Source of the DNA: Schmidtea polychroa
Lineage: Eukaryota
Assembly (NCBI GenBank): GCA_044892525.1
Contig: CM097885.1
Span: 1,800,001-1,860,000, forward strand
Length of the DNA: 60,000 bases
Direction of reading: 5' to 3'
Part shown: positions 19,757 to 50,911 of the stretch, one piece after another
Numbering within the stretch: the stretch's first letter is position 1
Layout of the letters: each line of letters begins with the position of its first letter
Notes under the pieces: model-generated
Told to the model about the DNA's origin: nothing
Databases searched by the model: none
Seen by the model: the letters and a program-made list of their open reading frames with translations, nothing else
Position numbers and translations under genes: made by a program

Positions 19757-21454
19757 TTATTTAAAAACACTCAACACACAAGTATTTACTGCATTCTGCA
19801 CATTAATTTTCGGATTCAATGATTTTATCAACAACGCCTCACAAATCACACGTTCCCAATAATTATCGAAATTTTTTAATAAAATTTTAAAATCAGACAT
19901 ACCTATTTTAATCTTACAGCCCTTATTGTGCTCACCAATATGGGTCAAAGCCTTCGGTCTACAATGTTCTCGAGCTCGAATATAGAGATGACGGGAAGTC
20001 TCTCCAATGTATGTTGAAGTTGACACTATCCTATAGTTTAAATTCCCTAACTGCTTTCTTATCTTAACTTTATAATCCTTAAAACCTTCTGAGTACGGCA
20101 ATATTAACACAAATTTAGGCTCATCATCCTTGCTCACACTATTTAATTTATTTAACTCATCAGACTCACACATCTCAACAAGATCACACCAAGATTTTCT
20201 CAACCATGGATCCTTAGGAATTTTAATAAATTTGTCAACAATCTCTTTCACCATAATTACTAAAAAGGATTTTGAATAACCATTCTTCATTAACAATTCA
20301 ATCAATTTGTCAACACTTTTTACTGAATTTTTAAAAGTAGAAGACAAAGACCATGCACGATAAATCAACCCCTTCACCATATTTCTTTTATACTTGAATT
20401 CACAAAAACTTTCGGAAGAAGTATAGAGACCAGTATCAGTTGGTTTTCTATAAATCTCTGTCTAATAGTGTTTCTCTTTGCGTTGTATTAACAGATCCAA
20501 GGAAGCAAGCGATGATTTTTTCTCCGTTTCACATGTGAATACAATGTTTTTATGTAGACTATTCATATAATGCAAAAACGGGTCAACATGCCTCTGATTT
20601 TCAAATATAAGAAAAATATCATCCACATACTGTTTATAAACAGTGGGTTTCATACCTTGGAAAGATGCAATTTTCTTTTCTAAGCTTGTTAAATAAATTG
20701 AAGCCATCGTTGGTGCTAAAGGAGAACCCATAGCAACTCCGTCTATTTGTTGATACCATTCATTATTGAAAAGAAAATTGATTTTTGAAGTTGCAAATAC
20801 AAGAAGTTCACGAAATGCTGTTCTATCCAAAATATGATGTTCAGAAATATTTTCATTCCATAACAAGCAACATAATTCAATTGTTTCAACCAATGGTACA
20901 TTAGTAAACAGACTACAAACATCAGACGAAACCATAATTTCATCCATACTCTGTCTATCATATTGTGCAATGCAGGAAACAAATTCAAAACTATCTTTAC
21001 ATTCAAATTCTGATCGCATTAATGGTTTCAATAATCCATCTACGTCATCTTTATGGATTTTTGGAAGCCCATACATTTTTGCTGGTTGTGATCCCATTGG
21101 GCGAATAGATTTAAACAACTCTTCATCAATTTGCTTATTTTTAATTAATTTATTCAGTATTTCTTTCAACAAATTCTCATCTTTAAGAGGAGGCTGTATT
21201 CCATTTTTTCGAGAAATCTCTATTTTCACAAACTGGGGAGCGTTCAAAACATCATTAAGCTTATTTACATATACATCATGGTCGAGAATTACCAATCCAT
21301 TTCCTTTGTCAAACTTGCATATATTGATGTCTTTTTTAGCTAAATTTTTTAAAACAGTAAACTCTTTAATATTCTGCTTTTTATTTTTATCAATATACTC
21401 CATCGTACTCAAACTCAACACACTCTTCACATAATTAGTATTAATATCCTTCAT
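19757..21454 (-). pseudogene. Penelope RT/GIY-YIG endonuclease ORF, one in-frame stop at 20462-20464 plus probable deletions
   Basis: YGLPKIHK, DVCSLFTNVP, GVAMGSPLAP, YVDD, IYRKPTDT, YIGETSRHLYIRAREH. Confidence 0.9.
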
Positions 21455-25460: not shown

Positions 25461-26810
25461 CAGGGCCGGCTTTAGTTGGAAGCGGTGGATGCAAAGCATC
25501 GGGGCGCCTCTCGGAAAGGGCGCTAAAAATTTAGAATTTTAGTTTCTTTTTAATATTTAACAAAAAAACCATTAACAAATTTTTTTTTAATAAGAATTTT
25601 TTTTTTTTTTTTAAATAAAATTTCCTTGAAAAACTACTGGCCTACTAGTTTTCGAAGTGTTTAAGAATTGTTTAATTATTTCGCAAAACAAAATAAATTA
25701 TACATGCATAAATTTATTTTGAAACGGCCTGCTATATTCGGTTTAGTTATTTCGATTAAAAAAATTAATGCTAAAAAAAATTATTTTAAAAGTCTCCCAG
25801 TTCTATTCAGTTTTCAATCAGTTCAGTTGTTATTTGGTAAACTTTTTTCGCTAATAAAAAAAAATTTAATATTAAAATTTTAATAGTAAAATAAAAAAGT
25901 GTTCAGTACAGTTTAATAGTAAAAAAGTGTTTTGTTTCAGTACATTAGTTATTTTGCGGAATTGAATCATTGTACGGTGGTAGGTATTATTTAATTATTT
26001 TTATCTTTACTTCTAAAATTTATATTTTTTTAATTAAAAAAATTTTTATTAGCTTACCTATATCATAAAATATGAATTCAAAGACAAAATTATCCGGGTG
26101 TGAAAATCGAAAACGAAAGGCGAAGAGAGAGTTGGAGGAACAAAAAAATCAGGGAAGCCTTAACCAATATTTAAAAAAAGCAAATTTGACAATACCTACA
26201 ATAACGTTAACGGATGATCAGATTATTCCAGAGGATAGCACAAATGGTGAAGTTAGAAATAATGCCACTAATGAGACACAATCTATAAATTTACAAACAG
26301 AAATAACATCTTCATCTAACAAAGAGCTTCAAACCATACATTTAACTGAAACTATAAGTAATAGTGCTGATTTTCATTCAATTGATCCCGCAACTTGGCC
26401 TAAATTTATTAATGATAAAATTAGAAAAATTATTATTGAGCAAGGACCAATGCAAATAAGGAAAGAAGTTTATCGCCGTGATGATGATGGACGAAGTTTT
26501 ACTAATTATTATTACAATCGTAAATTACCTAATAATGAAATTATACCAAGATCATGGTTAGTTTATTCAAGTTCAGCAAACCGTGTTTTCTGTTTTTGTT
26601 GTAAATTGTTTATAAATCAAATAGAAGGAAACCAGCATTTGATTATAAATGGTTTTAGTTGCTGGAGAAATTTGTCAAAAACACTTGCAGCTCATGAAGT
26701 TAGTACATTACATGTTAATTGTTTTTTAAAGTGGACTCAATTAAAAAATATATACACCATTGTTATAAAATAAATATCAAGAATAGTCAATTATTAGAAT
26801 CACAAAAGAT
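25461..26810 (+). mobile_element. 5' fragment of a second ZMYM1-like hAT transposon (ORF 26072-26773)
   Basis: CAGGGCCGGC terminus; KLSGCENRKRK, DPATWP, RSWLVYS..VFCFCCKLF..GF..W..L..HE..H zinc-finger region homologous to 15491-16141; catalytic part absent. Confidence 0.8.
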
Positions 26811-27589
26811 AATGATATTGTTTTTGGACTGTATTGGATTGGATTGAATAACATAAGGAAGGATTGAATATTCGATTGTTCACAAATATTATTTTATTAG
26901 GTTGATTCGAGTTGGTTGTGTTATTAGGTTATCTGGGTCTACCGTCTCTCCTCGGCACATATATTGACCTTATATCTCCTGGGCCCTGTTTTATAATATT
27001 TGTTGAGGTTAAATGTGGTGATAGGCCTACCCTCATCATCCAACATAAATTAAACTCAACATGAAAACTAAATCACGATGAGAACGTGTGAACGACTCGT
27101 TTGTTTTCCAAAATGCGTTGATAATGATGATAGCGCTAATCACAACTCTAAATTCTATGTAGTGAACAAATATTCATTATCTAAGTAGGTAACCCGTAGT
27201 AGAGAAAATACCATTTAATGTCGGAAATAAAGAATATTTCCTCAACAGAATATAACCTCGTAAATGAGGACAGAATTATCCACCGATATTATGTCTCATT
27301 TAATTATCTAAATAGTAGCAACGAAATTCAAGAATTTCAGTAGGTAGATAGTGGCCCGCTGCCGCAATTACCCCCCCCCGGGGGGGGGGGGGGTCTGCGG
27401 CAGCTTTTTTTTTGCGGCAAATTTTTTTTTTGCAGCAACTTTTGGTTACGCAATTGCGGCAACTCAAAATTTTTGCTTTTCAGGGATTTTTAGTCCAAAT
27501 TTTTTTTATCACACTATAGCGAGGGGGTCTCGATGGACCTGGGATTTTCAATACAAAAAAATTTTTTTCAATACGAAAAGGTGGTCTCA

Positions 27590-29310
27590 ATAAAAAAGCA
27601 TGGATTTATCCCACTATAGTGAGGGGGTCTCCTTGGTCCTGAGAAAAAGGTGGTCTACACTAAAAAACAGTGGCAATTTAAAGTCTCAGGATATTTTCAA
27701 TACAAAAATCCGACTACCACTAAAAAAAGCATGGATTTTTCTAGGTCAATTCAGGTGGGTCTCCTTGGTCCTGAGAAAAAGGTGGTCTACACTAAAAAAC
27801 AATGGCAATTTAAGGTCTAAGGATATTTTCAATACAAAAATTCGACTACCACTAAAAAACAGTGGCAATTTAAGGTCTCAGGATATTTTCAATACAAAAA
27901 TCCGACTACCACTAAAAAAAGCATGGATTTTTCTAGGTCAATTCAGGTGGGTCTCCTTGGTCCTGAGAAAAAGGTGGTCTACAAAAAAAACAGTGGCAAT
28001 TTAAGGTCTCAGGATATTTTCAATACAAAAAGGTGGTCTACACTAAAAAACAGTGGCAATTTAAGGTCTCAGGATATTTTCAATACAAAAATTCGACTAC
28101 CACTAAAAAAAGCATGGATTTTTCTAGGTCAATTCAGGTGGGTCTCCTTGGTCCTGAGAAAAAGGTGGTCTACACTAAAAAACAGTGGCAATTTAAGGTC
28201 TCAGGATATTTTCAATACAAAAATCCGACTACCACTAAAAAAAGCATGGATTTTTCTAGGTCAATTCAGGTGGGTCTCCTTGGTCCTGAGAAAAAGGTGG
28301 TCTACACTAAAAAACAGTGGCAATTTAAGGTCTCAGGATATTTTCAATACAAAAAGGTGGTCTACACTAAAAAACAGTGGCAATTTAAGGTCTCAGGATA
28401 TTTTCAATACAAAAATCCGACTACCACTAAAAAAAGCATGGATTTTCTAGGTCAATTCAGGTGGGTCTCCTTGGTCCTGAGAAAAAGGTGGTCTACACTA
28501 AAAAACAGTGGCAATTTAAGGTCTCAGGATATTTTCAATACAAAAAGGTGGTCTACACTAAAAAACAGTGGCAATTTAAGGTCTCAGGATATTTTCAATA
28601 CAAAAATTCGACTACCACTAAAAAAAGCATGGATTTTTCTAGGTCAATTCAGGTGGGTCTCCTTGGTCCTGAGAAAAAGGTGGTCTACACTAAAAAACAG
28701 TGGCAATTTAAGGTCTCAGGATATTTTCAATACAAAAATCCGACTACCACTAAAAAAAGCATGGATTTTTCTAGGTCAATTCAGGTGGGTCTCCTTGGTC
28801 CTGAGAAAAAGGTGGTCTACACTAAAAAACAGTGGCAATTTAAGGTCTCAGGATATTTTCAATACAAAAAGGTGGTCTACACTAAAAAACAGTGGCAATT
28901 TAAGGTCTCAGGATATTTTCAATACAAAAATCCGACTACCACTAAAAAAAGCATGGATTTTTCTAGCTCAATTCAGGTTGGTCTCCTTGGTCCTGAGAAA
29001 AAGGTGGTCTTCACTAAAAAACAGTGGCAATTTAAGGTCTCAGGATATTTTCAATACAAAAAAACACTTTTCAATACAAAAAGGAGGTCTTCAATAAAAA
29101 AGCATGGATTTTTCTAGGTCAATTCAGGTGGGTCTCCTTGGTCCTGAGAAAAAGGTGGTCTACACTAAAAAACAGTGGCAATTTAAGGTCTCAGGATATT
29201 TTCAATACAAAAATCCGACTACCTTTAAAAAAGCATGGATTTTTCTAGGTCAATTCAGGTGGGTCTCCTTGGTCCTAAGAAAAAGGTGGTCTACACTAAA
29301 AAACGTGGCA
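27590..29310 (+). repeat. Higher-order tandem array of 60-bp and 72-bp modules in outer left arm (mirror at 55135-56174)
   Basis: Modules GGTGGTCTACACTAAAAAACAGTGGCAATTTAAGG... and TCCGACTACCACTAAAAAAAGCATGG... Confidence 0.95.
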
Positions 29311-30953
29311 AATTTTTTCAATTAAAGTAAATAATGGTTCTAAAAAATTAAATTAAATTACAGTAAATTATGGTCCAAATTTTTCAATTACAGTAAATAA
29401 TGGTTCTAAAAAATTAAATTACAGTAAATTATGGTCAAAAATTTTGAATTACAGTATATTATGGTTCAAATTTTTCAATTACAGTAAGTAATGGGTCTAA
29501 AAATTAAATTACAGTTAATTATGGTCCTAAAAAATTAAATTACAGTAAATTATGGTTCTAAAAAATTAAATTACAGTAAATAATGGTCCTAAAAATTAAA
29601 ATACAGTAAATAATGGTCCAAATTTTTAAATTACAGTAAATTAAGGTCCAAATTTTAAATTAAGTAATCAATGGTAAAAAATTTTAAATAAGTAAATTAA
29701 AGTAATAATTTTTAAAATAAGTAATCAATGGTAAAAAATTTTAAATAAGTAAATTAAAGTAATAATTTTTAAATTAAGTAATCAATGGTAAAAAATTTTA
29801 AATAAGTAAATTAAAGTAAATTAAAGTAAGATTTTAAAATTTAATTACAAAATAATAGAAGCTGGTTGAGAATTGAAATTTTTTAATGAAAATTTTTATG
29901 AAATAATTTTTAAGTAATTTTTAATAGAAATTTTAATGAATTATTTTTCAATGGTAATTTTTAATGGAAATTTTTATGAAATATTTTTCAATGATAATTT
30001 TAGATGGAAATTTTTAAGATAATTTTTAATGAAAATTTTTATGAATTATTTTTCAAAGACAAATTTTAATAATAATTCAACAACAAACCAACAACTTAGT
30101 ATCAACAACCAGTAACTTACGAACATGTATTTACAACCAGATACCTACAACTAGTTACTAACAACCTGATACCAACTACTCACAACCCACAACAACCAGC
30201 TACTAAGCATTATCAACCAAGTACCTACAACCACATACCAAGTACTAACAACCGACAACAACCAGCTAACAACTAACTACCACCTACCAAATACTTACAA
30301 CCAACATCAACCAGGTACTAAGCATTATTAACCAACTACCAAGTACTCACAACCGACAACAACCAGGTACTAAGCATCATCAACTAACTACTAAATACCT
30401 ACAACCAACCAATTACCTGATACCAAGTACTAACAGCCAGTTACCTGCTACCAAGTACTAACAACCAACAACCAACTAACAACTAGGTACCAGATACCAA
30501 CTACTTACAACCAACAACTAAGTACTAACAACCAGCTAACAACTAGATACCAAGTACTTACAATCAACAACAACCAACAACTAAGTACTAACAACCAGCC
30601 AACAACTAGATACCTAGTACTAAGCACTGTCAACTAGATACCAAGCACTGACAACCAGATGACCACATGAAATTATTGGTTAAATATGAAAATAAGGATT
30701 ATATTTAGTTGTTAAGTAAATTATGGTGTAAAATTAAGAAATAAAAATAATTAGGTAAATTAAAGTTAAAAATTTTAAATAAGTAAATTAAGGTTCAAAA
30801 TTTAAAATTAAGTATCCAATGGTTCAAATTTTAAATTAAAGCTAAATAAGTAAATTAAAGTAAAATTATTTATTTATTATCAAAAGATTGAATAACCACC
30901 AACTTTTTTGAGAAATGTAATTTATAATGAAAATTTAAATGGAAATTTTAATG

Positions 30954-31047
<94 letters not shown>

Positions 31048-34000
31048 TCAACAGTTACCAACAATCGGTTACTGATTATTTTTTAACTAGGTGCTAACAA
31101 ATACTTACAACATGATACCACGTACTAACTAACTCTCAAACAACCAAGTAAAAACAACCAAGTACCAACAATCAACTAAATATTCTTTATTGTATTTTAT
31201 GAATTGTTTTTTAAATTAATTTTTTATCTATCTTCAAAAATATGTTTAATTACAATCAGTAGAAAAACCTTTTCAAAATGTCTAAATTTAATAAAAATGT
31301 TTATTTTCATCAAAATGAATAATTGTCAACTCAACACCACGTGGAATTCAAAATAATTTAAATTACAATGAAAGACTAATGAATTCTAATTTACAAAACA
31401 TTCTTCTTTTAAATGATAACTACTGACTTATTATTGCAATGTAAAAATCGCATTCAATAAATACTTATTGTTGATCAGTTTTATTATATATACTTTGAGT
31501 TTATCTGACAGGATGTTTTGACCCCCCCCCCCCCCCTAAGGGTACAGGTCGTAATGGTACAGGTCGTAAGGGTATTAGTCGTAAAGGTACTAGTCGTAAG
31601 GATATTGGTAACACTCAACCCCCATCTACCAATTAACTAGTTACTAAGTACTAACAACCAGCTAGCAACTAAATACTAAACACTAACAACCACCATCAAC
31701 CAGATACTAAGCATTATCAACCTACAACTATATAACAACAATCAATAAACAACACTGTACCAACTACCAAATACAAGATACCAAGTACCAACAATCAACT
31801 AACAACACATAAAAATAATAGCAATTAAATAAAAAAATTATTCTTCATCGCATACACTATTTTCTTATCAAAATCTAAAAAGTCGACCAACTACTTACAA
31901 CCAACAACTATGTACTAACAAATTGATCTTTAAAAGCAAATACTCTTCACTTGAAAAATTAGATGGAAAATTAATTGAACTCAAGACATCAATAACTAGG
32001 TAAAAATTGATTAATTAATTGTAAAAATTTAAATTATTCAAAATAAATATCATAAAAATTAAATTAATGGACAAGAAAGAATTCTAGTCATTAATCATCC
32101 AGTAAATACTGATCATTCAAGTTAATATGAATCGACTAAGTTAATAAATAATATCTAATAGATAATTGATTTAGATTGAATAAATTAATTGAAATAAAAT
32201 TAATTTTAATTATTTTTTTGTAAAAGTAATACATGTACTCAAATTGATTGACTGATTTCTCAATATATTCAAAAAATCAGTAGAAATTCATTACAATTAT
32301 CAAAGTCAGCAATCTACAATAAAAATAATTATCATTAAATTCCAAAAGAGACTAGATAACTAATGATAACATCTAACAAACCAATAAATTCATTTAAATG
32401 ACAATAATTGGTATATTCAAGTGAATTCTCTAATAAAATCATCTAAAAAGAATCATTTCCCCTAAATATATCAATATTTAAAGATTGGTATCTTATCGAA
32501 AAGTACTTGTTAAAGATCATATGTTCACCTCAAACTAACAAGATTCCTTAAAATCCCCTTAAATGACTACATTTCTATCCTTAATTCATATTATTACAAA
32601 TATCATCTAAAAAGCATCAAATTTCATTGAAATAACACTATCCTTAAAGATTGATATTTTAATGATAAGTACCCTTAAAAGACTATATATTCCCCTCAGA
32701 TTAATAAGATTGCTTAAAATCCCCTTTAAATGACTATAATTCAAACTTTAATTCCTATTATCACTAATATTATAAAACATGTAAAATAATTTGATCATTA
32801 ACCCTAAATAATTTATAAAATCTAATGATAAAAGCAGTTATAATTAAATTTTTATTCTAAAAATAAATCACTCTATTTGAAATTTACAATAATTATTACT
32901 GTACAATATAACTGACTAGGTCCCATTGAAAGATTAAATTTATCCATTCAATAAAATATATTTCTTCAAATGATCATTTTTACCAATATTCAACCGATTT
33001 AATTACTAATTAAAATCAAGATTTCTTCCAATAAAGATAATTATTTCTCAACTTTTGTCATTCGCCGCCTAAATAAAGATAAAAATAATTTAAAGTTGAT
33101 ATCAATCCCAATTATCTGTAAAGATTTTATTGTCAAAACCAAGTAAATCGATCATTATCCCTACTTAATAAAACATTGTTCTAAAACATAAATCTAAATT
33201 AATATACAATGAATTAATCACAACCTAATAAAACGATATAATTTCACATTATTATTGATACATAACTGACTAATTGCAATTTCCTTAAAAACATTGATAT
33301 TTTACCAACATCACCCTTAAAAAATCATATATTCCCATCTTAACCGATCTTTCATTACATTTAACCGACTATATCCCCTTAAAAGATCATATTTTCCCCA
33401 TCTTAAACGATCTCTCACCAAATATTTCTACCCCTTTAAACATCTAACCGAATATATCCTTCAATTCTACCCACTTGAATCCTCCTTTAATTCAATTCAG
33501 TCTTAAAATCTTTAAAGAACTTCAAAAATATGACTTAATTGTTATAGACACCAAATATTCTTCCATTGAAATAATTTAGTAGCTATGTAGTAAGAGTTCA
33601 CTAAAAGATCAAAAATCAATATTTTCTACAAATATTTACCATCAAATACTGGAGATGATATATATTGATTGATCATAATTCTTCATCGATTCAGCCAATC
33701 ATTTTCAAGCAATAACAGCAAACTAAATTTCTTTATATCCTACAATAATTATCACGTAAATTTAAAGTCCCTGATAAAGTTAACTGGTTTCTTAGCTTAT
33801 GTTTTTAAAGATCATCAATGTGTAAATATTCTTAGAAAATTATTGAAAAAATTATTTATTCAAATATATTAAAAAGTTATCATCAAAAATTTATTCTATC
33901 ACTTAATTATTAACCTAATTGTCAATGAAATAAATTTTTATTTAAAAACTATTCAATAAAATACAACTAATTATCAAGAAATTAATTAAATTTAATTAAA

Positions 34001-36402
34001 TTTATCACCATTAAAACTTTTAATCAGTCAACATGAAATTCTTAGAAAATTATTCAATATCCTCATCAAAATTTATCCTACCACTTGATTATTGTACAAA
34101 CTCTAATTATTAGCCTCGTTAAAAATAAATTTTTATTTAAAATTAAAAAACAAGTCAATAAAAATACATTCAATTATCAAAAAATTAATTAAATTTACAT
34201 TAGAATTAGCATTAAATTACAGATATTCACAAAAATTACGGAAATTCATGAAAATAATGGAAATTCACAAAATAAAAATTCTCAAATAAATGTTAGATAT
34301 TAATTTATTAATCATTATATACTTTTTAAACTTATTATTGGAAAAAAAAGTAGAATGATATTGAAAATATATACAATTTAAAAATACAATTAAAATTAAA
34401 TTATATACTTTAAAAATTTGGTAAAATGTTGGTAAAATCCCGTTCACAGCTTGTTATGTAATAAACTAGTTTAAATTACATATCCTTCTCACTTATATTC
34501 CACCAATTCTCAATATTCCACAAATTATTATTTTATTTTTTATTAATTTTATGAATTTTATGAAATAATTTTAAATAAATTCAATTAATATATTTCCATT
34601 CTTATAAACCTTCTTTTTATCTATGCCACTTCTCAGTATTTACCTCTGATGATCCATTAATGAATTATTCTACCAATTATTTTCACCCATTTGAATTTAT
34701 CATCGAGTAATTTCCTCACTTTAATGAAGATTCTTACCACCTTCATTGTTAATTTTATCAAAGTTTAAAGAATAATTCTCTTTACATTGCTTACCACTTT
34801 AGAATTTTTATCGAAATTATGATAATTTTACTAATTCAATGAAAAATTTGAATGAGTTAATTAATATATATTCTGAGTTTATCCGACAAAATATTCTGTC
34901 CCCTTATGGGTATTGCTCACAAGGGTACTACTCACATTCAACAAGTCGCAAGGGTATTAGTCGTAAAGGTATTTAATGCTTTTATTTGAATGATTATTTA
35001 GACAAATTTGATGTTTAAGGTATTCATAATTTTTAGAGTTGATGGTTTTAGTAAATATTCAAGTAAATTTCTATCATTTTTGTGAATTTTTATCAATTTT
35101 GTGAATTTCCATTATTTTCATGAATTTCCGTAATTTTTGTGAATATCTGTAATTTAATGCTAATTCTAAGGTAAATTTAATTAATTTTTTGATAATTGAA
35201 TGTATTTTTATTGACTTGTTTTTTAATTTTAAATAAAAATTTATTTTTAATGAGGTTAATAATTAAAGTTTGTACAATAATCAAGTGGTAGGATAAATTT
35301 TGATGAGGATATTGAATAATTTTCTAAGAATTTCATGTTGACTGATTAAAAGTTTTAATGGTGATAAATTTAATTAAATTTAATTAATTTCTTGATAATT
35401 AGTTGTATTTTATTGAATAGTTTTTAAATAAAAATTTATTTCATTGACAATTAGGTTAATAATTAAGTGATAGAATAAATTTTTGATGATAACTTTGTAA
35501 TATATTTGAATAAATAATTTTTTCAATAATTTTCTAAGAATATTTACACATTGATGATCTTTAAAAACATAAGCTAAGAAACCAGTTAACTTTATCAGGG
35601 ACTTTAAATTTACGTGATAATTATTGTAGGATATAAAGAAATTTAGTTTGCTGTTATTGCTTGAAAATGATTGGCTGAATCGATGAAGAATTATGATCAA
35701 TCAATATATATCATCTCCAGTATTTGATGGTAAATATTTGTAGAAAATATTGATTTTTGATCTTTTAGTGAACTCTTACTACATAGCTACTAAATTATTT
35801 CAATGGAAGAATATTTGGTGTCTATAACAATTAAGTCATATTTTTGAAGTTCTTTAAAGATTTTAAGACTGAATTGAATTAAAGGAGGATTCAAGTGGGT
35901 AGAATTGAAGGATATATTCGGTTAGATGTTTAAAGGGGTAGAAATATTTGGTGAGAGATCGTTTAAGATTGGATATTGTTGGTTAGATTTAATGAGGGAT
36001 CGAATAAGATGGGGAAAATATGATCTTTTAAGGGGATATAGTCGGTTAAATGTAATGAAAGATCGGTTAAGATGGGAATATATGATTTTTTAAGGGTGAT
36101 GTTGGTAAAATATCAATGTTTTTTAAGGAAATTGCAATTAGTCAGTCATTAGTCTTTCATTGTAATTTAAATTATTTTGAATTCCACGTGGTGTTGAGTT
36201 GACAATTATTCATTTTTGATGAAAATAAAAATTTTTATTAAATTTAGACATTTTGAAAAGGTTTTTCTACTGATTGTAATTAAACATATTTTTGAAGATA
36301 GATAAAAAATTAATTTAAAAAACAATTCATAAAATACAATAAAGAATATTTAGTTGATTGTTGGTACTTGGTTGTTTTTACTTGGTTGTTTGAGAGTTAG
36401 TT

Positions 36403-38347
36403 AGTAGGTAGATAGTGGCCTACGGGAACAATTACCCCCCCCCGGGGGGGGGGGGGGGTTTGTTCCCAAATTTTTATTACGCAATTGTTCCCAACTCATT
36501 TTTTGCTTTCAGGGATTTTTGGTCCAAATTTTTTTTTATCACACTATAGTGAGGGGGTCTTGATGGTCCTGGGATTTTCAATACAAATTAAATTTTTCTA
36601 TACAAAAATCCGACTATCAATAAAAAAGTCAAGGATTATTCACACTATAGTGAGGGGGTCTCGATGGTCCTGGGATTTTCAATACAAAAAATTTTTTCTA
36701 TACAAAAATCCGACTACCACTAAAAAAGCCAAGGAATTTTCAGACTATAGTGAGGGGGTCTCGATGGTCCTGGGATTTTCAATACAAAAAATTTTTTTCA
36801 ATACAAAAATCCGACTACCACTAAAAAAGCCAAGGATTATTCACACTATAGTGAGGGGGTCTCGATGGTCCTGGGATTTTCAATACAAAAATTTTTTTTC
36901 AATACAAAAATCCAACTACCACTAAAAAAGCCAAGGATTATTCACACTATAGTGAGGTGAGTCTCCTTGGTCCTGGGATTTTCAATACGAAAAATTTTTT
37001 TCTATACAAAAATCCTACTATCAATAAAAAAGCCAAGGATTTATCACGCTATAGTGAGGTGAGTCTCCTTGGTCCTGAGAAATAGGTGGTCTACACTAAA
37101 AAACGTGGTAAATTTTTCAATTACAGTAAATTACGGTCCAAATTTTTCAATTAAAGTAAATAATGGTTCTAAAAATTAAATTAAAGTTAATTATGGCTCA
37201 AATTTTTCAAATAAGGTAATTATGGTTCTAAAAATTAAATTAAAGTTAATTATGGCTCAAATTTTTTAATTAAAGTAAATAATGGTTCTAAAAATTAAAT
37301 TAAAGTAAATTATGGTTCTAAAATATTAAATTACAGTAAATTATGGTCCAAATTTTTCAATTAAAGTAAATAATGGTTCTAAAAATTAAATTAAAGTAAA
37401 TTATGGTTCTAAAATATTAAATTACAGTAAATTATGGTCCAGATTTTTCAATTAAAGTAAATAATGGTTCTAAAAATTAAATTAAAGTTAATTATGGCTC
37501 AAATTTTTCAATTACAGTAAATAATGGTTCTAAAAATTAAATTAAAGTAAATTATGGTTCTAAAATATTAAATTACAGTAAATTATGGTCCAAATTTTTC
37601 AAATAAGGTAATTATGGTTCTAAAAATTAAATTAAAGTTAATTATGGCTCAAATTTTTCAAATAAGGTAATTATGGTTCTAAAAATTAAATTAAAGTTAA
37701 TTATGGCTCAAATTTTTTAATTAAAGTAAATTATGGTTCTAAAATATTAAATTACAGTAAATTATGGTCCAAATTTTTCAATTAAAGTAAATAATGGTTC
37801 TAAAAATTAAATTAAAGTAAATTATGGTTCTAAAATATTAAATTACAGTAAATTATGGTCCAGATTTTTCAATTAAAGTAAATAATGGTTCTAAAAATTA
37901 AATTAAAGTTAATTATGGCTCAAATTTTTCAATTACAGTAAATAATGGTTCTAAAAATTAAATTAAAGTAAATTAAGGTTCTAAAAAATTAAATTAAAGT
38001 TAATTAAGGTCTAAATTTAAAATTAAGTAATCAATGGTAAAAAATTTTAAATAAGTAATAATTTTTAAATAAGTAAATTAAAGTAATAATTTTTAAATAA
38101 GTAAATTAAAGTAATGTAATAAGTAAATTAAAGTAAGATTTTAAAATTTATTAACAAAAAGTTGAAGGTGTTTGAGAATTGAAATTTTTTAATGGAAATT
38201 TTTATGAAATATTTTTTTAAGTAATTTTTAATGGAAATTTTTATGAAATATTTTTCAATGATAATTTTAGATGGAAATTTTTAAGATAACTTTTAATGAA
38301 AATTTTTATGAAATATTTTTCAAAGTCAAATGAAAATTTTAACGAAA

Positions 38348-38378
<31 letters not shown>

Positions 38379-38392
38379 AAAAATAATAATAA

Positions 38393-38423
<31 letters not shown>

Positions 38424-38503
38424 ATATCGACCAAATACATAAAAATGAACTAGACACATAAAACACAAACAATTAACAAATGTAAAGATATAAAATTTAT
38501 TCA
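36403..38503 (+). repeat. Left TIR (2101 bp): terminal C/G hairpin, ~100-bp and ~30-bp tandem arrays
   Basis: Reverse complement of 51793-53479 apart from repeat copy number. Confidence 0.95.
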
Positions 38504-38509
38504 ATAAAA

Positions 38510-41500
38510 TTAGTCCTCATCGGACAAAATAACGTCATCGATATCGATGTCATCTTCTTCATTAAATTCTTCCTCATCTTCTCCAAAATCTTCATTTAAT
38601 TCTTCCTCATCTTCTCCATCATTTTCTCCATCATTTTCTCCATCATTTTCTGAAACATTTTCTGCAACAATTTCTCCAACATTTTCTCCAATATTTAATT
38701 CACTTAATCTTACATGCCCATATGCAAGACTAGCGTTTTTCCCCACCCAAACCCTTTTGTCATCTTTGTTTGTTAGTGCTATTTTTGTGTTTTTAATTGT
38801 AAAAATTTGATGATTTTTGCTTGTTATTTTAGTCTGAGGAACCGAAAAAATCTGGTTAGTGTTATAACAATCCAGGTATGACTGATGTTTTATGTCACTA
38901 CCTTTCAATGTTACACCTTTAGCCTTTTTTGTTTCCTCATCACCCAACAAGCTATAACATTTAGGTCTAAGAAAAACCCACTCCTTATATTTAAGACCTT
39001 TATTCTCGTCTTTGAACTTTCCAATGACTGAATCAAGGTTCTTACTATATAAGGAATGACAACTATTGTAATTGGAAGTATCTAATAAATTATCTCGAAT
39101 CATTGCAGGTAAAAGAACCTCAAGTTTGCAGTTAATGACTTCGAGGAAAAAAGAATCTGTATCACCTGCAACGATATTAATTTTACAATTAAACTCATTG
39201 CGAAATGATTCCAGATCCTTATATTGCAATTCATACATTCTAAGTTTAGATAGATCAAGTACAGATTGACCAATGTAACTCGGTCTATCTAAACATATAG
39301 AATCTGAATTCAATAGTGTTGCAATTAAATTATCAGCTATTTTAATAGATTTTTTAAAAGTCGGTTTTGACGAATATTTAACTAATTTACCGGCAGTTGT
39401 ACAAAGACGAAGATTCATTCTTCTCTTTAAATTTTCAACTGTTTTGCCGTATAAACTGTTATTTAGCAATTTATAATAATTTTTATCTAAGTTATTTACG
39501 CTTTTTGATCTTAATTCGGTATTTGTATCTATATATTTTTTAAAAATTGGTGATTGCTTAAATCTTACACCTCTATTTACACGTGTTACTTTAACACCAA
39601 GTTCTAAATATAATTTTAATAATCTCCAATGAATAACATAATTAGATTTTGGAAGATGAGTTAATAATAATTTTTCAACCTTAGACCCAGCAGGTTTCAT
39701 TTTTTCAGCAGCTACAGGGAAATCATCCAACTTATCATGAAGCTCAGAAGGAATTACAAGATCAACTTCAAGTGTGTATCCATAAGACAAAGATTCAAGA
39801 TTTAAATTCCTACATTCATCCATTATTTTATCAAATCCATCAAGAACCCAACAAAATTCGCCACAAGGTAATGATTGACTTAAAGCCCACCCATAAAGAT
39901 TATTAATATCTATATAAAGTAACTCGGTGTTCTCGTCGGTTTTTACGTAATGCTTATTCACAAAAGTAAGACCGCCTCTTATTCCACCCTCATAAAAGCT
40001 AAACATTTCGTTTTCAGTTATGAGTTCAATTGGTTCATTTAAAGACATTAATGCAGAAGACCAAGACATGCCTGGAATTCCGAAATAATTCAAAGGTTCT
40101 AATCTATTGTGAGCAATTGATTTCAACCTAAACTGATGAAAGAAATCAGCCAAAAGAAAACAATCAAGTTTTAGGTAGATCATCATATAATCTAATAAAG
40201 TTCTGCAATTAGATTCTACCCAAATCTCCTGAGCTTTTTCATACTCAAGCTCAGTGACACCCTCCCAGATTGGTGGTAATTCATACGTAGTTTGTAGAAC
40301 ATCTAAAGAAGTGGCGAAATTATAAGGGAAGATTCCTTTTTCACATACTATGGTGCCAGAAAAAGCAGAATTAGTAAAAGGCAAAGAATTCAAAGTTTTG
40401 ACTGCTTTAGCCAAAGAATCATTGACAAATTGATATGAATCAATGAATCTTATGCTAATTTTGCCTAAATGAGCAATCAAAGATATAAATTTTTCCGTAG
40501 TTATTGGGATGCACCCTAAATTCCAATTTTTAAATTTATTTAATCCATATTTAAGTATATGATGCATATCGTATCCCTTCAAGTTGTGAAATACGATAGG
40601 CAAAATTTTATTTATTTTTCTATTTACGTTACATGTGCTACAAGCTGCACCCAAGTATTTGCCCGTAAAATGATCGTGATCTCTAACAGGATCCACGATA
40701 GATTTCAAACAAAGATAACAAACCGTTGAATTAATGAATTGTTGTTGCTCATTTTTAGTTAATTTAATCATTGGTTTCCTACCCATTTTATAATAAAAAG
40801 GAAGAACCTTATTTAATGCTATATCCTCTATAGCACTTAAAAAACTCTCGACGCAATCTAAACCTATAAACTGTTGATAGGATTTAGATCCGTCAAAGTT
40901 ATTTACTAGTAAAAGACCAGCAGATATTGGCATGTGTCGCTGAAAATGAACATTATCAGAAGGTAAAATAGCCTCAAAATCGGCATAAACTACGAAAGGA
41001 GGAGTTACTGTTTTCGACCAGTCAGTAAACTGTAAGAATTTATTTTCAGGGAAAGTATAAAGAGTAGTTCCTAATTGATTGCGTTTGCATAATATTTCAT
41101 GTTTTTCTAGTGCGTTTCTATTGTTAAAACCATTCAAACAACGATGACACCATATTGATCGTATGCGTGTAGGACAACTAGTGTTTATGTGGCAATTCAG
41201 TAACCTATTTAAATTGCTTATAGCAATGTAATGGAAATTGTTCCCTTTATTTAATAATAGTAAATTAATTACTGTTCCATTTAAAACTTTGGAACGATGT
41301 ATAATGTCTAAATGGGGGTGTTTTAAAACGTAATTATCTGTTAATTGTTTGTTATTGTCATAAGAAAAAACATTAATTATTAAACCAGGATTTTTGGCCT
41401 CGAATTTTCTAATATCTTTTAATTTCATTGGTAAGTCTAATGGATTATATATTAACTCAGATAAATTATAACTGGATGTTCTATTTCTATATTGTTTAAT

Positions 41501-44013
41501 AACTTCATCATATTTTAAAATAGCTAAAATGCTATATAAAAAACACGAATCGTCGGTGTTTTTTACATTAATTAAGCATTTTTTATTTTTTAGACAAGTA
41601 GGTAGTTCAATGAAACTCCTACCACTTAATCTACTTAGCCTACTTATCTTTGTTATGGTGAAGTGAATTTCAGTTATTTTTTTTATGATCCAGCTACTTC
41701 CTAACTCTGTGATATTACTTATTTTCTCGTTTAGTTCTCTAATGCCTTCGTCAAAAAATGAGGCAGTTAAAGGTTTTGCGTAATTCGAAATATTATTAAC
41801 CTTTATTTCCCCGTCTTTTTCAAATTCGATTGTTATTCCGAATTGAATTTTGACGGAGCCTAATTCGTTAATAATATCTCGTAATTTTATAATTAATTGT
41901 TCTGGAAATATTATTTCCTTTATATTCAAGTTACTTGTATTTAGACTTAAAATTTGATGTGTACCCCTTAAATCTTTTTGTACTATGGGTACATTACCTC
42001 CTATTTGTACATTAGTAGTCGAAGAGTCGAGTGAAAGATTATCAAATTCATTATTGGGTTCGCCTACATCCCAAGAGTCGAGTGAAAGATTATCAAATTC
42101 ATTATTGGGTTCGCCTACATCCCAAGAGTCGAGCGAAAGATTATCAAATTCATTATTGGGTTCGCCTACATCCCAAGAGTCGAGTGAAAGATTATCAAAT
42201 TCATTATAGGATTCATCAACTAATCCGACCTGGGATTCAACAAAAGGCAATCCATCATTGGATTCAGCAAAAGACAATCCATCATCGGATTCAGCAAAAG
42301 ACAATCCATCATTGGATTCAGCAAAAGACAATCCAACATTGGATTCAGCAAAAGGCAATCCATCATTGGATTCAGCAAAAGACAATCCAACATTGGATTC
42401 AGCAAAAGGCAATCCATCATTGGATTCATCAACTAATCCGACCTGGGATTCAACAAATGTATTTAATTTAATTTTTTTATTAGTAGTATTTATTTCAATA
42501 GTTGAAGGACGTTTAAAAATAACATCTTTTTTAGAATTGAACCTATCTAAATGTTGTTTATGCTTATTATAAAAAACGCTATATGTTAAGGGCTCGCTAA
42601 TCTTACATATGGGGCATATAAAAAAAGTTTTATTATAGTATTTTTTAGAATAATAATTCTCCATTATAGAATGGCAATTATTATGTTCTTTCGACGAACA
42701 ATAATTTGGATAAAGTATACCTAAAATATATACATTTAAAAATTTGGCTAAAACATTTGATAAAAATAATACTATTAAAATTTTCTTATAATTTTGCATG
42801 TATGCATCCAATCAAAATTAATTATTTGCTATAAATGATAATTTAATGAAATAAATTTAACAAAAAATGTCTACTATAAATAGTATCCTATTAGAAGAAA
42901 ATAGTACATCAGTTATAGGTATGGTATGTAAACCTCCTATTCAATTCCTTCAATATAATATGTACTATTTGAAATATCCTATTACTTATTCGTTCAAGGT
43001 AATTTTTTATTTAATTATTTAATATTAATTTGTTATAGGAACCAGTTAATTTAAAAACATGTCAATTCAATATTCAAATTGGAGATATTGGGGAAGAAGA
43101 TAGAAAAAATCTTGGAGAAATTCTTAAATTAATTAATAAAGAAATGATTTTTAATGAAAAATTTACATTTATCAATTGTGAAAAAGGGTGTAAATTAGAC
43201 GAAGATAAAAAATCAAAAGTGCGAATACTTATTCAAGGAGTCAAGATAAATGGAGTTATAATTAAACCAATTTGGAAAATTACAAATGTTTTTGAATAAA
43301 TATTTAAGTGTTATTTTAAATGTTGTTGAAAAAAATTTTAAAGTTAATAAGTATTTAATAAGGGTCAGATTATTATTAAAGAGTACTGCATGCTCACTGC
43401 AGACTATTATGTAGCTACGTGCTCACTGTAGACTACATTATTATATTAAAGAGTACTGCATGCTCACTGCAGACTATTATGTAGCTACGTGCTCACTGTA
43501 GACTACATTATTATCATTATAAAAAAAATTTGCGAGGGATTTCCCCTTATTTCAAAATAAATATCATTAATAATAATTTCATTATAAAATATTATTTAAA
43601 AATGTTAATAATTTCATCATTATAAAAAAATTTTACGAGGGATTTCCCCTTATTTCAAAATAAATATCATTAAAAAATAACATTAATAATAATTTCATTA
43701 TAAAATATTATTTAAAAATGTTAATAATTTCATCATTATATAAAAAAAAAATTTTTACGAGGGATTTACCCTTATTTCATTATAAAATTTTATTTAAAAT
43801 ATTAGTAAAATATTAGATTATAAAAAATGAGTGAATTTCCTCTTAAGATCAAATAAAATTTTATTAAAAAATTATATAAAAATATCATTAATAATCATTA
43901 AAAAATATTAGTAATTTCATCTTATAAAATTTTATAAAAAATTGATAAAAATACTTACATTTGACATTTTTGTTCATAGTTTCATCCATTTCAGAATTTT
44001 TGTTCATTTTCAT
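38510..44013 (-). CDS. polB: Protein-primed family B DNA polymerase; predicted exons 43959-44013 and 38510-42720 (~1421 aa)
   Basis: Exo motifs VVYADFEA, FHNLKGYD, YLKLD; pol motifs YIDINNLYG, YKLLNNSLYGK, GDTDS, PKCY, KAKGV. The main ORF is certain; the upstream exon is predicted from a phase-matched GTAAGT donor and TTTTAG acceptor. Confidence 0.93.
42867..43299 (+). CDS. Unannotated 130-aa two-exon protein (42867-42998, 43039-43299); possible OB-fold ssDNA-binding protein
   Basis: AAAAAATG start, AAG|GTAATT..TTATAG|GAA 40-nt phase-0 intron, 87 open codons in exon 2, stop within AATAAA; function is inference. Confidence 0.7.
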
Positions 44014-44427
44014 AGTTTTTTAGTTTCAATCTTTTTTATCTAAAAAATAATTAAATTTTAATAATTAAAAAATAAAATTCTTACAATCCTTGGTACTAGC
44101 AAATTATGAGCAAATTTTAAAAACAAATCATTTATATACTTCTTCTTCTACTTAATACATTACGTAATAATTAAAGGATTAAATTTGATACCATGCGTAA
44201 TAATTAAAAGATTAAATAACTTACATAATAATTAAAGGATTAAATAACTTGCATAATAATTAAAGGATTTAATACCTTACATAATAATTAACTTAATTAA
44301 AGATTTAGTTTAATAATCAACTAAAATTTAAATTTTAATAATCAATTATATTGAATTAATAATCAACTAAAAATTTATTGAAATAATCAGCTAAAATTTA
44401 TTGAAAACAACTTTTTATTATAAAAAT

Positions 44428-44806
44428 TTATTTCATTGACTTTAACCAAGCCAAACAATGTTGTCCACATGTTTTTGTTATAGGGTTTTGGTAACGTATT
44501 CGATTGTATTCAATCGGCATTGACATTGATTGTAGTTTATTGATTAATATAGGTGGATAATAGAATCCCATTGGATCAAATGCATATATTTTGTCTGGTT
44601 TCACGTATACTGCAAGCCAATGTTCACCATTCAGATTAGCAGATTGAGTATTTACAATTATTGCTTTGTTGACATCTAAATAAGGTATTTTGTCTAATGG
44701 GAAAACACCTAGAAATTCTTTTCCTAGTAATTTTCTTCCGATAACATGTATCTGAATAGAACTAAATTAATAATAATTAAATAATTTAAATTAATTCTTA
44801 CTTCAT
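44428..44806 (-). CDS. Adenain-like maturation cysteine protease, 112 aa (exons 44802-44806, 44428-44761)
   Basis: FLGVFPLD, IVNT...GEHW, FDPMG, Q......CGQHC; 40-nt GTAAG..TTTAG intron after ATGAA. Confidence 0.92.
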
Positions 44807-44840
44807 ATTTGATTAATTGATTTTCGATATTTGGTTTATA

Positions 44841-46064
44841 TTATACCAAAACAGTACGAGTAGATGTAATTTGAATTTCTTTTTCAAAAACTCCATATAC
44901 GATTACAGAAACAGCTTCAGTAAGTGAAGATGCGAATTTAATATCTAATCGCAAATTTCCACTTTGTGGTAACTGACTTTGATGAAGATCAAAATCTGGT
45001 GCCAATACGAATGTAAAGAATGGATACTTGCTCTTAAAATCAGACATGGTGATACCACAATTCATATTTTTATTTAGATAACCCATATTTCTAATAATCG
45101 ATTGCATATAACTTGTACTATAATCATCATTCTCAAAATCTTGACTATATTTTTCGCGATAATCACTTCCTTTACTTAAAGTTATGGACTTGACATTAAA
45201 GTGATCAAATAAAGAAAATGATTCTGAAAACGATCCACTAAATCTTTTACTAGATTGAAATGCAACAAGTATAAAATTAGGTAATCGTCTATCTCCAAAT
45301 ATTTGTTCTTTATAAAAAGAGGAAGAACCAATAGGTAATGAGAAATCAACAACTTCTTTGCTTCTTAAAGGATAAATTGCATTTTTGGTAGACAGACCAA
45401 TTTGATGTCCTGCCAAAACCGATGGTTCAACACGAACTCTTCTAACCATTAATTTTGCGTCTAATAATAAAATTTTCGGTTCAATTTTCGCACAAGTTAA
45501 ACTAAGTGTTGGATTTGATCTTGTTAATTTAATTTGAACACTAACACCTGGTAGTAAATATTTAGGTTGATCAAAGAAATCAAATTGAAGTGGGGAACAT
45601 AAAGAAAAGGATTTTGATTTTTCAATCCATGTTTTTCTCGTAAGATCTTTGTTAGTATACCCCATTCCACCTAAAGATGTTCGTTTAGTATCTCCGTCAT
45701 AATTTATAAGTGTTTCAATTAATGCTTTGTGGGCAAATCTATCATTTGATCCTTCAACTTTGATTGAATTAAAAATTAATTCAACATCTTTAAAAAGGGT
45801 TTGGAAGAAGAAATTATTTGGAATTACTTCTGATTCGCCTAAATTCTCACCTAAATTATTAACAACTTTCAATTGAATATATAACAAAGTATCATTCAAA
45901 TCTAAATATTCAGTCTGCGATCCATTTATGTAAAATTGAATCGAAGAAGAACCGGCATCTGTAATTGAATTTCTTGGGTATACATCTTCAAATGCTCCAT
46001 GTTCAATCACTGCTTGGGGAGAAGGTCTATCAAAAAGACATAATTCTGATTTAGCACTAATCAT
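44841..46064 (-). CDS. Major capsid protein (double jelly-roll, PY)
   Basis: KSELCLFD..PQ N-terminus, YLDL..T.LY..LKV, QPKYLLPGV, GNLRLDIKF typical of Polinton MCP. Confidence 0.92.
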   Translation of the reverse strand: MISAKSELCLFDRPSPQAVIEHGAFEDVYPRNSITDAGSSSIQFYINGSQTEYLDLNDTLLYIQLKVVNNLGENLGESEVIPNNFFFQTLFKDVELIFNSIKVEGSNDRFAHKALIETLINYDGDTKRTSLGGMGYTNKDLTRKTWIEKSKSFSLCSPLQFDFFDQPKYLLPGVSVQIKLTRSNPTLSLTCAKIEPKILLLDAKLMVRRVRVEPSVLAGHQIGLSTKNAIYPLRSKEVVDFSLPIGSSSFYKEQIFGDRRLPNFILVAFQSSKRFSGSFSESFSLFDHFNVKSITLSKGSDYREKYSQDFENDDYSTSYMQSIIRNMGYLNKNMNCGITMSDFKSKYPFFTFVLAPDFDLHQSQLPQSGNLRLDIKFASSLTEAVSVIVYGVFEKEIQITSTRTVLV

Positions 46065-46459
46065 TTTTCAAAGATGGTACCATATCCTTTCATTCTTTTG
46101 TTTATATGTTTCTTCATAATTTTTCGGCGTTTAAGTATTCCGCCTTTTTGTTCTTTATCATTTTTAAATACATCGGATACTTTATTAATTACTTCAGGTA
46201 AATGTTGCATCACAGCTGGTAATGATTCTTTAATTTCAGAAATTGCATTTGATTTTAAAGCAGGCAAGATATTTGCATTGTTATTTATTACGTCATTAGC
46301 TGTTTTCATACCAAAATTTCCTATTCGTCTAAGAATTGGGAGTGCAAATCTACCTATTGTCTTCAACCAACCGGTTCCATATTGTTTACCAACAAAATAT
46401 GGTAAATCACCACCCGATTGGTTACTACTATAAAAATGTATTATGTCAGGATTACTCAT
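46061..46459 (-). CDS. PW-like virion core / putative membrane-active protein
   Basis: NQSGG, QYGTG, QKGG, MKGYG putative adenain-type sites; amphipathic GWLKTIGRFALPILRRIG. Confidence 0.75.
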   Translation of the reverse strand: MSNPDIIHFYSSNQSGGDLPYFVGKQYGTGWLKTIGRFALPILRRIGNFGMKTANDVINNNANILPALKSNAISEIKESLPAVMQHLPEVINKVSDVFKNDKEQKGGILKRRKIMKKHINKRMKGYGTIFEK

Positions 46460-47468
46460 TTATTTTACGAAAATGTAATGTCAAGTATGTTTTATCTTCT
46501 TTTCCAAATATATATTTTCCACTATCATCTCGTATATTGATTTCTATATTGTTTATATATGAAGACGATACAGGTAAGTACATTGGATTCTTTTCAATTA
46601 TTTGTACTAAATCATCTTTTTTATGTTTTTCCACCCAAATACATTTCAAAAGAGGGACCAATGTATCACCAACAATAATAGGTTCGATAATATTTGTATA
46701 GATCATCAATTGTTGATTGCGTTGTAATACTTCAGGTTCTTTAAAACCAATAATAAGTTTGTCAGTATATGCTTCTTCTAATAATCCTAAACTATTGGCT
46801 AAAAATTTACTAAATTGAACTTTACTGACATCATCATCCATTACAATTTTAACGATTTTTCCTTTTTGAATATCAACAGATTTAAATGGACGAGGATAAA
46901 AGAGTGATAGTTGATCATTTATTTGTGAAAGATCTGTAATGATATTTTCTTCGAATGTATCTGTATACTCGACATCGTAATAATATTGTATAGTTAGTCG
47001 AATTGTATCAAACTTTATTTTTCGATTATTTGGAGGAATAGTGATTTGGTTCAAGGCTTTTTTAAAAGTTATTTCTTTTTCTGAAAATCCCAATTTCTGC
47101 GCTTCTTTAATACTATCGAATTCTACTTTAAAAGGAAAATATTTACAATTAATGTTCAATGTATTTCCATCAATATATATTAAATAAAATGGAGAGTCGT
47201 GACTGATTGTATATTCATTTTTTTCTTGGTTAAAGTAAAAGTATTCATAACTTGTATGTAATACACTTTTACTATATTTGACATTTGAATTACTGTAAAA
47301 AGGAAAATAATTATACACAAAGGTAAAGTCCATGAGAGCTACTTCCCATTCACCATCCAAGTAAATAGGATTTTGAAATTCGACATTAAATTTACCAGCT
47401 TCATTATTTGGATGAGTCTGAGGACAACTATTAGAAGGTAAATTCACATAAAAATCTTTTTTAATCAT
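46452..47468 (-). CDS. Minor capsid (penton, PX) paralog 2
   Basis: FYVNLPSNS...P.N....F...F..PIYLDGEWEVAL; IYTNIIEP..VGD..VPLL; IEINIRDDSG..LHFR. Confidence 0.9.
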   Translation of the reverse strand: MIKKDFYVNLPSNSCPQTHPNNEAGKFNVEFQNPIYLDGEWEVALMDFTFVYNYFPFYSNSNVKYSKSVLHTSYEYFYFNQEKNEYTISHDSPFYLIYIDGNTLNINCKYFPFKVEFDSIKEAQKLGFSEKEITFKKALNQITIPPNNRKIKFDTIRLTIQYYYDVEYTDTFEENIITDLSQINDQLSLFYPRPFKSVDIQKGKIVKIVMDDDVSKVQFSKFLANSLGLLEEAYTDKLIIGFKEPEVLQRNQQLMIYTNIIEPIIVGDTLVPLLKCIWVEKHKKDDLVQIIEKNPMYLPVSSSYINNIEINIRDDSGKYIFGKEDKTYLTLHFRKINE

Positions 47469-48486: not shown

Positions 48487-48491
48487 AATAT

Positions 48492-49640: not shown

Positions 49641-49709
49641 TATTACAACAAGTTGTCAAAATATTAAAATCTACAATATTTTTATTTGGTAATGAACTCT
49701 TGATACCCA

Positions 49710-50036
49710 TTAAGAACTTAATGATGAGATTGCACTAATTGCAGATAAGACTATAGGAATTAGTGCACCCAAGAACCCTCCTTTTTGTTTATATATTATC
49801 TTTCTCATTAGACGACGATTTTTTGTATCAACTAGAGATAAAAGTGATCTTTTATGTCTTTGCAATACTAATCTTTTAGCTTTAGTTATATTTACATTAC
49901 CGCGGACAACATTTATAATAACTTCAAGTAAATCATCAATAACAAATGATGGAAAAGACTGTAAAATTGATATTCGTTTCGAATTTGGTGCCTTTATTAA
50001 AGCATTAAAATATGGTAAGCTCCGTTCAAATTTCAT
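49710..50036 (-). CDS. Basic core protein with adenovirus pX-like C-terminus, 108 aa
   Basis: QKGG|FLGALIPIVLSAISAISS resembles pX GGFLPLLIP; first ATG at 50036. Confidence 0.75.
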   Translation of the reverse strand: MKFERSLPYFNALIKAPNSKRISILQSFPSFVIDDLLEVIINVVRGNVNITKAKRLVLQRHKRSLLSLVDTKNRRLMRKIIYKQKGGFLGALIPIVLSAISAISSLSS

Positions 50037-50065
50037 TATTATTATTAATTTACGCGACGGTTTGT

Positions 50066-50218: not shown

Positions 50219-50237
50219 GATTAATTTTATTTAGTTT

Positions 50238-50861: not shown

Positions 50862-50911
50862 TTTTTAATTAAATTATTTTATTTAATTTGTTTATAATTA
50901 CAATAATTAGA

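Follow-up and report, generated by a model that had tools for sequence, protein, structure and literature searches.

Concerted swap of a repeated motif in the terminal hairpins of two nested Maverick-type elements of Schmidtea polychroa

When two related mobile elements share the layout of their termini, what does it mean that a short motif repeated within those termini differs between them at one copy after another? The question is raised by a 60,000-nucleotide stretch of DNA from Schmidtea polychroa (GenBank assembly GCA_044892525.1, contig CM097885.1, positions 1,800,001 to 1,860,000 of the forward strand), referred to below as the window, with its first letter as position 1. The DNA of the window is AT rich and of an animal type, and in it a Maverick/Polinton (the inner element) is inserted into the right arm of a gene-less palindromic element (the outer element). 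An earlier interpretation made from the letters alone (the sequence-only reading) had noted a concerted swap of an iteron-like motif in the terminal hairpins of the two elements and had proposed that it was a family-specific origin or protein-binding code. We report here that the concerted swap is real and lies well beyond chance at the local divergence. Among the explanations that we weighed, one in which the motif is a binding site leads, tentatively, over one in which only the structure of the hairpin matters and one in which the repeats are sites for host factors.

Results

The terminal modules share one layout

The 13-mer AGTAGGTAGATAG occurs three times in the window, each time exactly, at 27339 (+), 36403 (+), and 53467 (−), the last two copies being the bounds of the inner element. 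An invariant 18-bp core starting with AGTAGG forms both the inner left tip (36403 to 36420, + strand) and the outer left tip (27339 to 27356, + strand), the latter being identical to inner offsets 1 to 18, counted from the tip. Judging from the end motifs of Mavericks, this core is probably the end at which replication is primed and on which integrase acts. The adenovirus core origin is 18 bp long.

Behind the core, each end carries a hairpin, with its loop in a run of C followed by G, and further copies of the motif. In the outer element, the hairpin (27358 to 27404, + strand) has arms GCTGCCGCA (27358 to 27366) and TGCGGCAGC (27396 to 27404); the inverted motif GCCGCAA lies in the GCTGCCGCA arm region (27361 to 27367) and is followed by a C9G14 run (27371 to 27393) and the first direct copy (27395 to 27401, + strand). 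Two extra units of 17 to 18 bp (27412 to 27445, + strand), which are absent from the inner end and come from a 17-bp triplication, lead to a segment (27445 to 27466, + strand) made up of the word GTTACGCAAT, the last copy, TTGCGGC (27454 to 27460), and AACTCA. In the inner element, the hairpin (36424 to 36467, + strand) consists of GGGAACAA (36424 to 36431), a C9G15 run (36435 to 36458), and TTGTTCCC (36460 to 36467), and the corresponding distal segment (36476 to 36498, + strand) holds the word ATTACGCAAT, the last copy TTGTTCCC (36485 to 36492), and AACTCA, with the word TTACGCAA (36477 to 36484) directly before the last copy. The inner right terminal module (53384 to 53479, − strand) has the motifs of the left end around a C12G12 run. 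There are thus three motif copies at the inner end and five at the outer end, one of them inverted in each case. The sequence-only reading had placed these hairpins and motifs correctly and was right that the two ends have the same layout with a different motif.

Two smaller features of these ends stand apart. At the inner end only, offsets 17 to 21 (CCTAC) complement GTAGG of the tip, giving a second, small hairpin (36404 to 36423). Also, TTACGCAA is similar in sequence to TTGCGGCAA, the unit of the outer array, and stands in phase with the 17-bp repeats there (27445 to 27460); of the two motifs, that of the outer element may be the older.

The motif has changed in concert between invariant blocks

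Aligned from the tip, the outer and inner ends are identical at offsets 1 to 18 and 27 to 41 and differ, with no insertion or deletion, at six of the eight positions at offsets 19 to 26. The inverted motif reads GCCGCAA in the outer element and GGGAACAA in the inner one; in each, the complement follows the C/G run and comes again right after TTACGCAA, and the corresponding change is present at both of these downstream homologous copies. In both elements, the last copy abuts TTACGCAA beyond the C/G hairpin and complements the inverted copy over 10 bp without a mismatch; at the inner end, it is an alternative pairing partner. The register from the tip is also the same, the inverted copy ending at offset 29 and the C run beginning at offset 33.

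The earlier description of the swap holds in outline and needs trimming in three places. The motif was said to change at every copy; the change is concerted at the homologous copies, but the outer end has CTGCGGC at 27395, TTGCGGC at 27412, TTGCAGC at 27430, and TTGCGGC at 27454, so that only 2/4 direct copies are exact. The spacers were said to be conserved, which is true of offsets 27 to 41 but not of offsets 19 to 21, which differ, nor of the outer end's two additional units of ~17 bp. Finally, the motifs do differ as described, but TTG/CAA is common to both, and the swapped core is only CGGC (outer) versus TTCCC (inner).

The adjoining single-copy stretch differs by only 5 substitutions in ~94 paired columns (~5%), and the cluster of six changes in eight positions is therefore far from what chance would give at that rate (P of ~5e-7 at roughly the local rate and 8e-5 over 150 windows), although with a background of 20% P over 150 windows would be 0.18. 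As the two inner ends are one pair of terminal inverted repeats (TIRs), the comparison is one of two independent motif types.

The ends fold, and template switching would spread a change

Folding of the three ends was more stable than that of shuffled sequences on 6/6 strands (z-scores of −3.5 to −5.9). The C/G run contributes to this stability, folding on its own at −12 to −13 kcal/mol, compared with −21 to −25 kcal/mol when the arms are included. At the inner end, the inverted copy was computed to pair with the first direct copy at a probability of 0.55 to 0.76 and with the last at 0.24 to 0.45, and the left end has two near-equal folds, of −24.1 and −23.8 kcal/mol. At the outer end, pairing with the first copy is dominant (0.85), and the alternative costs ~6 kcal/mol. 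The two inner TIRs differ at 4 of the first 890 positions, and three of these differences are adjacent G/C changes in the hairpin loop; the run is C9G15 on the left and C12G12 on the right (53424 to 53447), with a length of 24 in both. This shift fits what a small loop inversion would give, the alternative being independent slippage of the two runs.

Protein-primed replication, as known from adenovirus, displaces single strands, so a substrate for template switching would exist. As the sequence-only reading had held, the stem is preserved, the change keeping complementarity to the inverted copy at each homologous place; what that reading overlooked is a simpler cause, template switching between the inverted arms, which likely explains the concerted change without selection on the motif. 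Passages of PMC8604942 describe such switching at short inverted repeats, with homogenized arms and inverted spacers, and the ends seen here are alike in arm homogenization, spacer inversion, and clustered changes. They go beyond that description in that the change extends to a third copy, a direct one that lies beyond the main hairpin and can be reached by the alternative fold.

The hairpin alone might then be what matters, its letters being free: template switching and slippage would spread any version, the motif would be a neutral subfamily marker, and any helper would serve. We regard this as a serious possibility, short of the preferred one, and the complementarity of all copies to the inverted arm, the two near-equal inner folds, and the loop shift between the inner TIRs are all in line with it. 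It leaves unexplained why six changes should cluster in 8 nucleotides between invariant blocks and why the register from the tip is fixed, and the outer last copy is still a perfect complement of the inverted copy despite the energetic cost of that pairing.

We also considered a conserved G-quadruplex role for the G run. A three-tier G-quadruplex with 1-nucleotide loops needs 15 G, and the run has 15, 14, and 12 G at the three ends, two of them below that length, making such a role unlikely.

Possible signs that the motif is read

Several features favor a motif that is read by a protein: the divergence is focused on it, its register from the tip is fixed, its last copy stands beside a constant word and clear of the main hairpin, and the passenger, the outer element, has additional copies. 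Variation at the inner end was examined in contigs from 4 of 11 listed public runs (3 studies), aligned to 36340 to 36630 (28002, 1735, 50, and 3352 contigs). The two direct copies and TTACGCAA together make up 24 positions, none of which had a listed variant, versus 13 of 80 neighboring positions (Fisher p = 0.026); without the tandem part, the comparison was 0/24 versus 7/55 (p = 0.07). Conservation of the tip and of the inverted copy was dropped from this analysis, because each listed row needs ~31 letters on either side, which those places cannot have. Changes at the C/G boundary appeared in contigs of 4/4 runs and are possibly alignment effects, the total length of the run being unreadable from the contigs. 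Contigs that cross the terminus with 6 to 13 differences (X1 records 1 and 2, X7 record 17, and X8 records 25 and 26) may represent further motif types and serve here as leads.

The same contigs bear on whether the outer terminus might be an assembly artifact or a one-off rearrangement. Long homopolymers in the hairpin are error prone, and the outer terminus is a single occurrence whose right-hand counterpart is missing. Nevertheless, the two TIRs agree on the inner motif, which contigs cover in all four runs, the five occurrences of the outer motif are consistent with one another, and one contig of run X1 has six differences and no gap over 36401 to 36448, which is the outer-type count. We therefore consider an artifact very improbable.

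Next to the last copy stands a word that does not change. In the form RTTACGCAAT, it is present three times in the window, once per end and nowhere else, with 0.5 occurrences expected by composition, and passages of PMC3066118 give this sequence as the core of a C/EBP gel-shift probe. An invariant C/EBP-like neighbor could mean that the repeats, too, are host transcription-factor sites, aiding the origin or a TIR promoter, and that the subfamilies have switched factor. This is an unlikely explanation in our judgment, although TTACGCAA and the outer last copy together form the palindrome CGCAATTGCG, and the inner motif contains AACAAT, which we take to be a SOX-type word. Precedents are a gain or loss of the NF-I site among adenovirus inverted terminal repeats (ITRs), in passages of PMC6410123, and host-factor binding at iterons, as proposed in passages of PMC12548392. 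Set against these, words this short match by chance, and within one host such sites would be expected to stay constant.

If the motif is instead a site for a protein of the element itself, a candidate reader is the N terminus of the protein-primed DNA polymerase B (pPolB) of the inner element, which carries a CxxC..HxxH motif. Among the 40 relatives aligned (those of at least 1090 amino acids among the first 57 matches), 12 have this motif, either once or twice; the region that holds it is poorly conserved (mean identity, 0.27). Acidic tandem repeats also lie in this N terminus (42031 to 42572), and most relatives do not cover them.

Retroviral-type integrases mostly read the last 10 to 20 bp of their substrate. 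The corresponding part here is the invariant one, which argues against the repeats being subterminal signals for integrase assembly or packaging with no role in replication initiation. In favor of such signals, the repeats are no more than 130 bp from the tip, and both an integrase and a packaging ATPase are among the genes of the inner element; moreover, passages of PMC11296320 propose that in polinton-like viruses the inverted repeats act in integration as well as serving as the origin. We judge this alternative improbable.

Returning to the binding-site reading, several points weigh against it. There are two motif types only, one of them in a protein-less element. The contig comparison is a weak test, since its zone was picked after the table had been viewed and contigs with other motif types would mostly fail to align. 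At the outer end, one of the extra copies has decayed, and the first copy deviates (C for T) while the stem gains GC outward, as though pairing rather than the motif were being kept there; this surrender of a motif match for a longer stem also favors the view that structure alone counts. So do the downstream tandem arrays, where variants particular to each element recur in most or all of the copies (GCCAAGGA versus GCATGGA and GGTCCTGGGA versus GGTCCTGAGA), so that concerted change is common in these TIRs. Template switching alone predicts concerted change together with low variation in the arms. As to the neighbor word, passages of PMC2577330 label that site in a COX-2 oligonucleotide CRE. 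For the candidate reader, the zinc motif of pPolB matched no Pfam DNA-binding family and only had a generic zinc-ribbon look-alike (0.93; 164/256 features). In nematode Polintons, according to passages of a preprint (bioRxiv 2023.08.22.554363), pPolB falls into two classes that are only weakly similar, and the TIRs are highly conserved; this exchange of polymerase behind constant ends argues against pPolB as a strict reader and is likewise in keeping with a hairpin whose letters are free. Finally, in the virus of one study, iteron identity was nonessential for geminivirus replication (passages of PMC12548392).

Comparison with known termini

The inner element resembles the Mavericks/Polintons in passages of Barreat and Katzourakis (2021; PMC8097293) in its 17-kb size, TIRs, 6-bp duplication, AGT-type tip, pPolB, integrase, ATPase, and protease. 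The only end motifs in those passages are 6 bp long and act in jumping-back priming; unlike what the passages describe, the tip AGTAGG is followed here by a hairpin with an iterated motif that varies by subfamily. The TIRs are also longer, at ~2 kb, than the 46 to 1,447 bp given there for vertebrate Mavericks.

The sequence-only reading had likened the repeats to geminivirus iterons, and the layout does fit a published description: iterons are five to six nucleotides long, occur as three to four repeats with one antisense, and diverge between close relatives (passages of PMC12548392), just as a short motif is present here three or more times, once antisense, by a stem-loop, with positions kept and sequence differing between the two elements. 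Unlike a geminivirus, however, the host element is linear, protein primed, and integrating, it lacks Rep and the TAATATTAC nick site, and the repeats themselves form the stem. Among the inner-element open reading frames (ORFs) scanned, none belonged to a rolling-circle Rep family, and the loop is a C/G run rather than TAATATTAC; with neither Rep nor TAATATTAC, we have not filed the motif as a geminivirus iteron. The repeats may work like an iteron array, yet they are not geminivirus iterons, and the hairpin is a putative origin.

Adenovirus, a related protein-primed replicon, offers the other parallel. According to passages of PMC6410123, adenovirus ITRs combine a core origin with sites for NF-I and NF-III, and the NF-I site is not the same in all HAdV-E4 lineages; here, too, behind an invariant tip comes a zone that varies with lineage and contains words resembling host-factor sites. 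The auxiliary sites of adenovirus are, in those passages, single host sites, as opposed to the iterated motif inside a hairpin seen here.

We looked for further ends of this type. The 18-mer tip had no match in viral contigs. Pattern scans gave 11 matches to the C/G run in viral contigs, none with the terminal layout, 4 matches in metagenome contigs, none with the C/G hairpin, and 7 matches in prokaryote genomes, none with the upstream layout; we regard all of them as chance. No related loci for the capsid-like ORF and pPolB were confirmed in viral contigs. In the literature, no such motif was found in Polinton titles and the beginnings of abstracts, and alignments in Kapitonov and Jurka 2006, Pritham 2007, Repbase, or supplements could hold the layout; the word "hairpin" is absent from PMC8502044. 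The swap, then, is real and was not found in the literature searched.

The inner and outer elements

The inner element (36403 to 53479; 17,077 bp) is a Maverick/Polinton, as its TIRs, 6-bp duplication, AGT-type tip, pPolB, integrase, ATPase, and protease show. Its TIRs are 99% identical between 36403 to 37597 and 52285 to 53479, and the pairing extends to ~2 kb. TTAGTT flanks it on either side (36397 to 36402 and 53480 to 53485, + strand) as the 6-bp target-site duplication typical of Mavericks, and the end motif AGTAGG is a variant of (AGT)2, in keeping with the short AG/AGT repeats of Maverick ends.

The four genes described next lie on the − strand. The pPolB frame (38510 to 42799) has 291 homologues, and PF03175 is annotated on most of the top ones; a direct scan against Pfam found nothing beyond a weak, endonuclease VII-like match (Endonuclease_7). 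An adenain-like protease frame (44428 to 44766; Peptidase_C5, E = 1.4e-5) has no in-frame ATG at its start. The retroviral-type integrase with a chromodomain (48492 to 49640; rve, E = 1.2e-8; Chromo, E = 2.5e-4) is broken by a short stretch bearing stops, and an A32-like packaging ATPase is encoded at 50238 to 50861 (Pox_A32, E = 7.9e-7). A TBP-like gene (50888 to 51388; Pfam, E = 3.4e-16) and a protein X-like ORF are also present; a gene-map legend in PMC8502044 names TBP. The ORFs at 44841 to 46064, 46452 to 47468, and 47461 to 48486, putative genes for the major and minor capsid proteins by resemblance, had no Pfam match, and a Cys-rich ORF of 115 amino acids had no usable match in an atlas search. 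A search of 27000 to 57000 against Rfam gave no match to a structured RNA family.

The outer element is a gene-less near-palindrome, recognized by self-BLAST, whose left part spans 27339 to 36402, with a mirror center at ~34680, and whose right arm resumes past the insertion at 53486 and ends at 56174, before its own terminus; the right terminus and target duplication are missing from the present copy. None of 12 inner-element proteins matched it in tblastn. With a Maverick-type tip in common with the inner element and no coding capacity, it is a non-autonomous Maverick derivative. Its arm has the same layout as the inner TIR at ~66 to 79% identity (12 longest local alignments), while its own arms are up to 97 to 100% identical to each other (longest pairs); descent of the outer element from a sister subfamily is therefore likely. 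The subterminal arrays of the two elements (27500 to 29300 and 36520 to 37110) have modules in common with element-specific variants, GTGGCAATT being present 14 times in the outer array and GCCAAGG 4 times in the inner one.

Mobile remnants on the host side comprise a hAT-type transposase (13640 to 16141), a reverse transcriptase that includes a GIY-YIG part (19757 to 21454), and, at 26072 to 26773, a fragment of an ORF similar to the N-terminal part of hAT.

Discussion

How Mavericks/Polintons start replication and recognize their ends has been reasoned from adenoviruses, and the literature passages that we drew on stop at the 6-bp motifs. The explanation that we prefer, though with less than even confidence, is that the terminal module works as a replication origin of two parts: end-binding proteins encoded by the element itself would recognize the motif, whose form is specific to the subfamily, and template switching would rewrite it at all copies. 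The invariant tip would be the site of terminal-protein priming and integrase cutting, as at other Maverick ends. On the displaced strand, the inverted copy would fold onto either of two direct copies, the first and the last, and copying of one arm from the other by the polymerase would bring a new motif to every copy in one or two steps, with the C/G loop inverted en route. The new motif would be kept if an element-encoded protein reads it, the candidates being the variable zinc-binding N terminus of pPolB and the integrase. The neighboring TTACGCAA would be an unchanging site for a host bZIP factor, comparable to the sites for host factors that follow the core origin in adenovirus. The gene-less outer element, from a sister subfamily, would depend on a helper with its own motif and would have gained its two extra copies along the way; the sequence-only reading had suggested a helper of a different subfamily.

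A stronger version, in which Mavericks carry an iteron-type origin code whose motif is read by a zinc module of the element and is rewritten in one step, splitting helper-passenger groups, strikes us as doubtful on present evidence.

Either way, the natural swap separates an invariant tip from a variable motif and so provides a map of the origin. If there is no code, hairpin copying alone rewrites the ends, and the swap would be a trace of single-stranded replication intermediates. If there is one, it would explain how helpers and satellites are paired and would decide which helper copies which passenger. Should that code be of the iteron type and read by the zinc module, coresident Mavericks and giant palindromic satellites would fall into incompatible groups, and the motif would be the first known specificity determinant of a Polinton origin.

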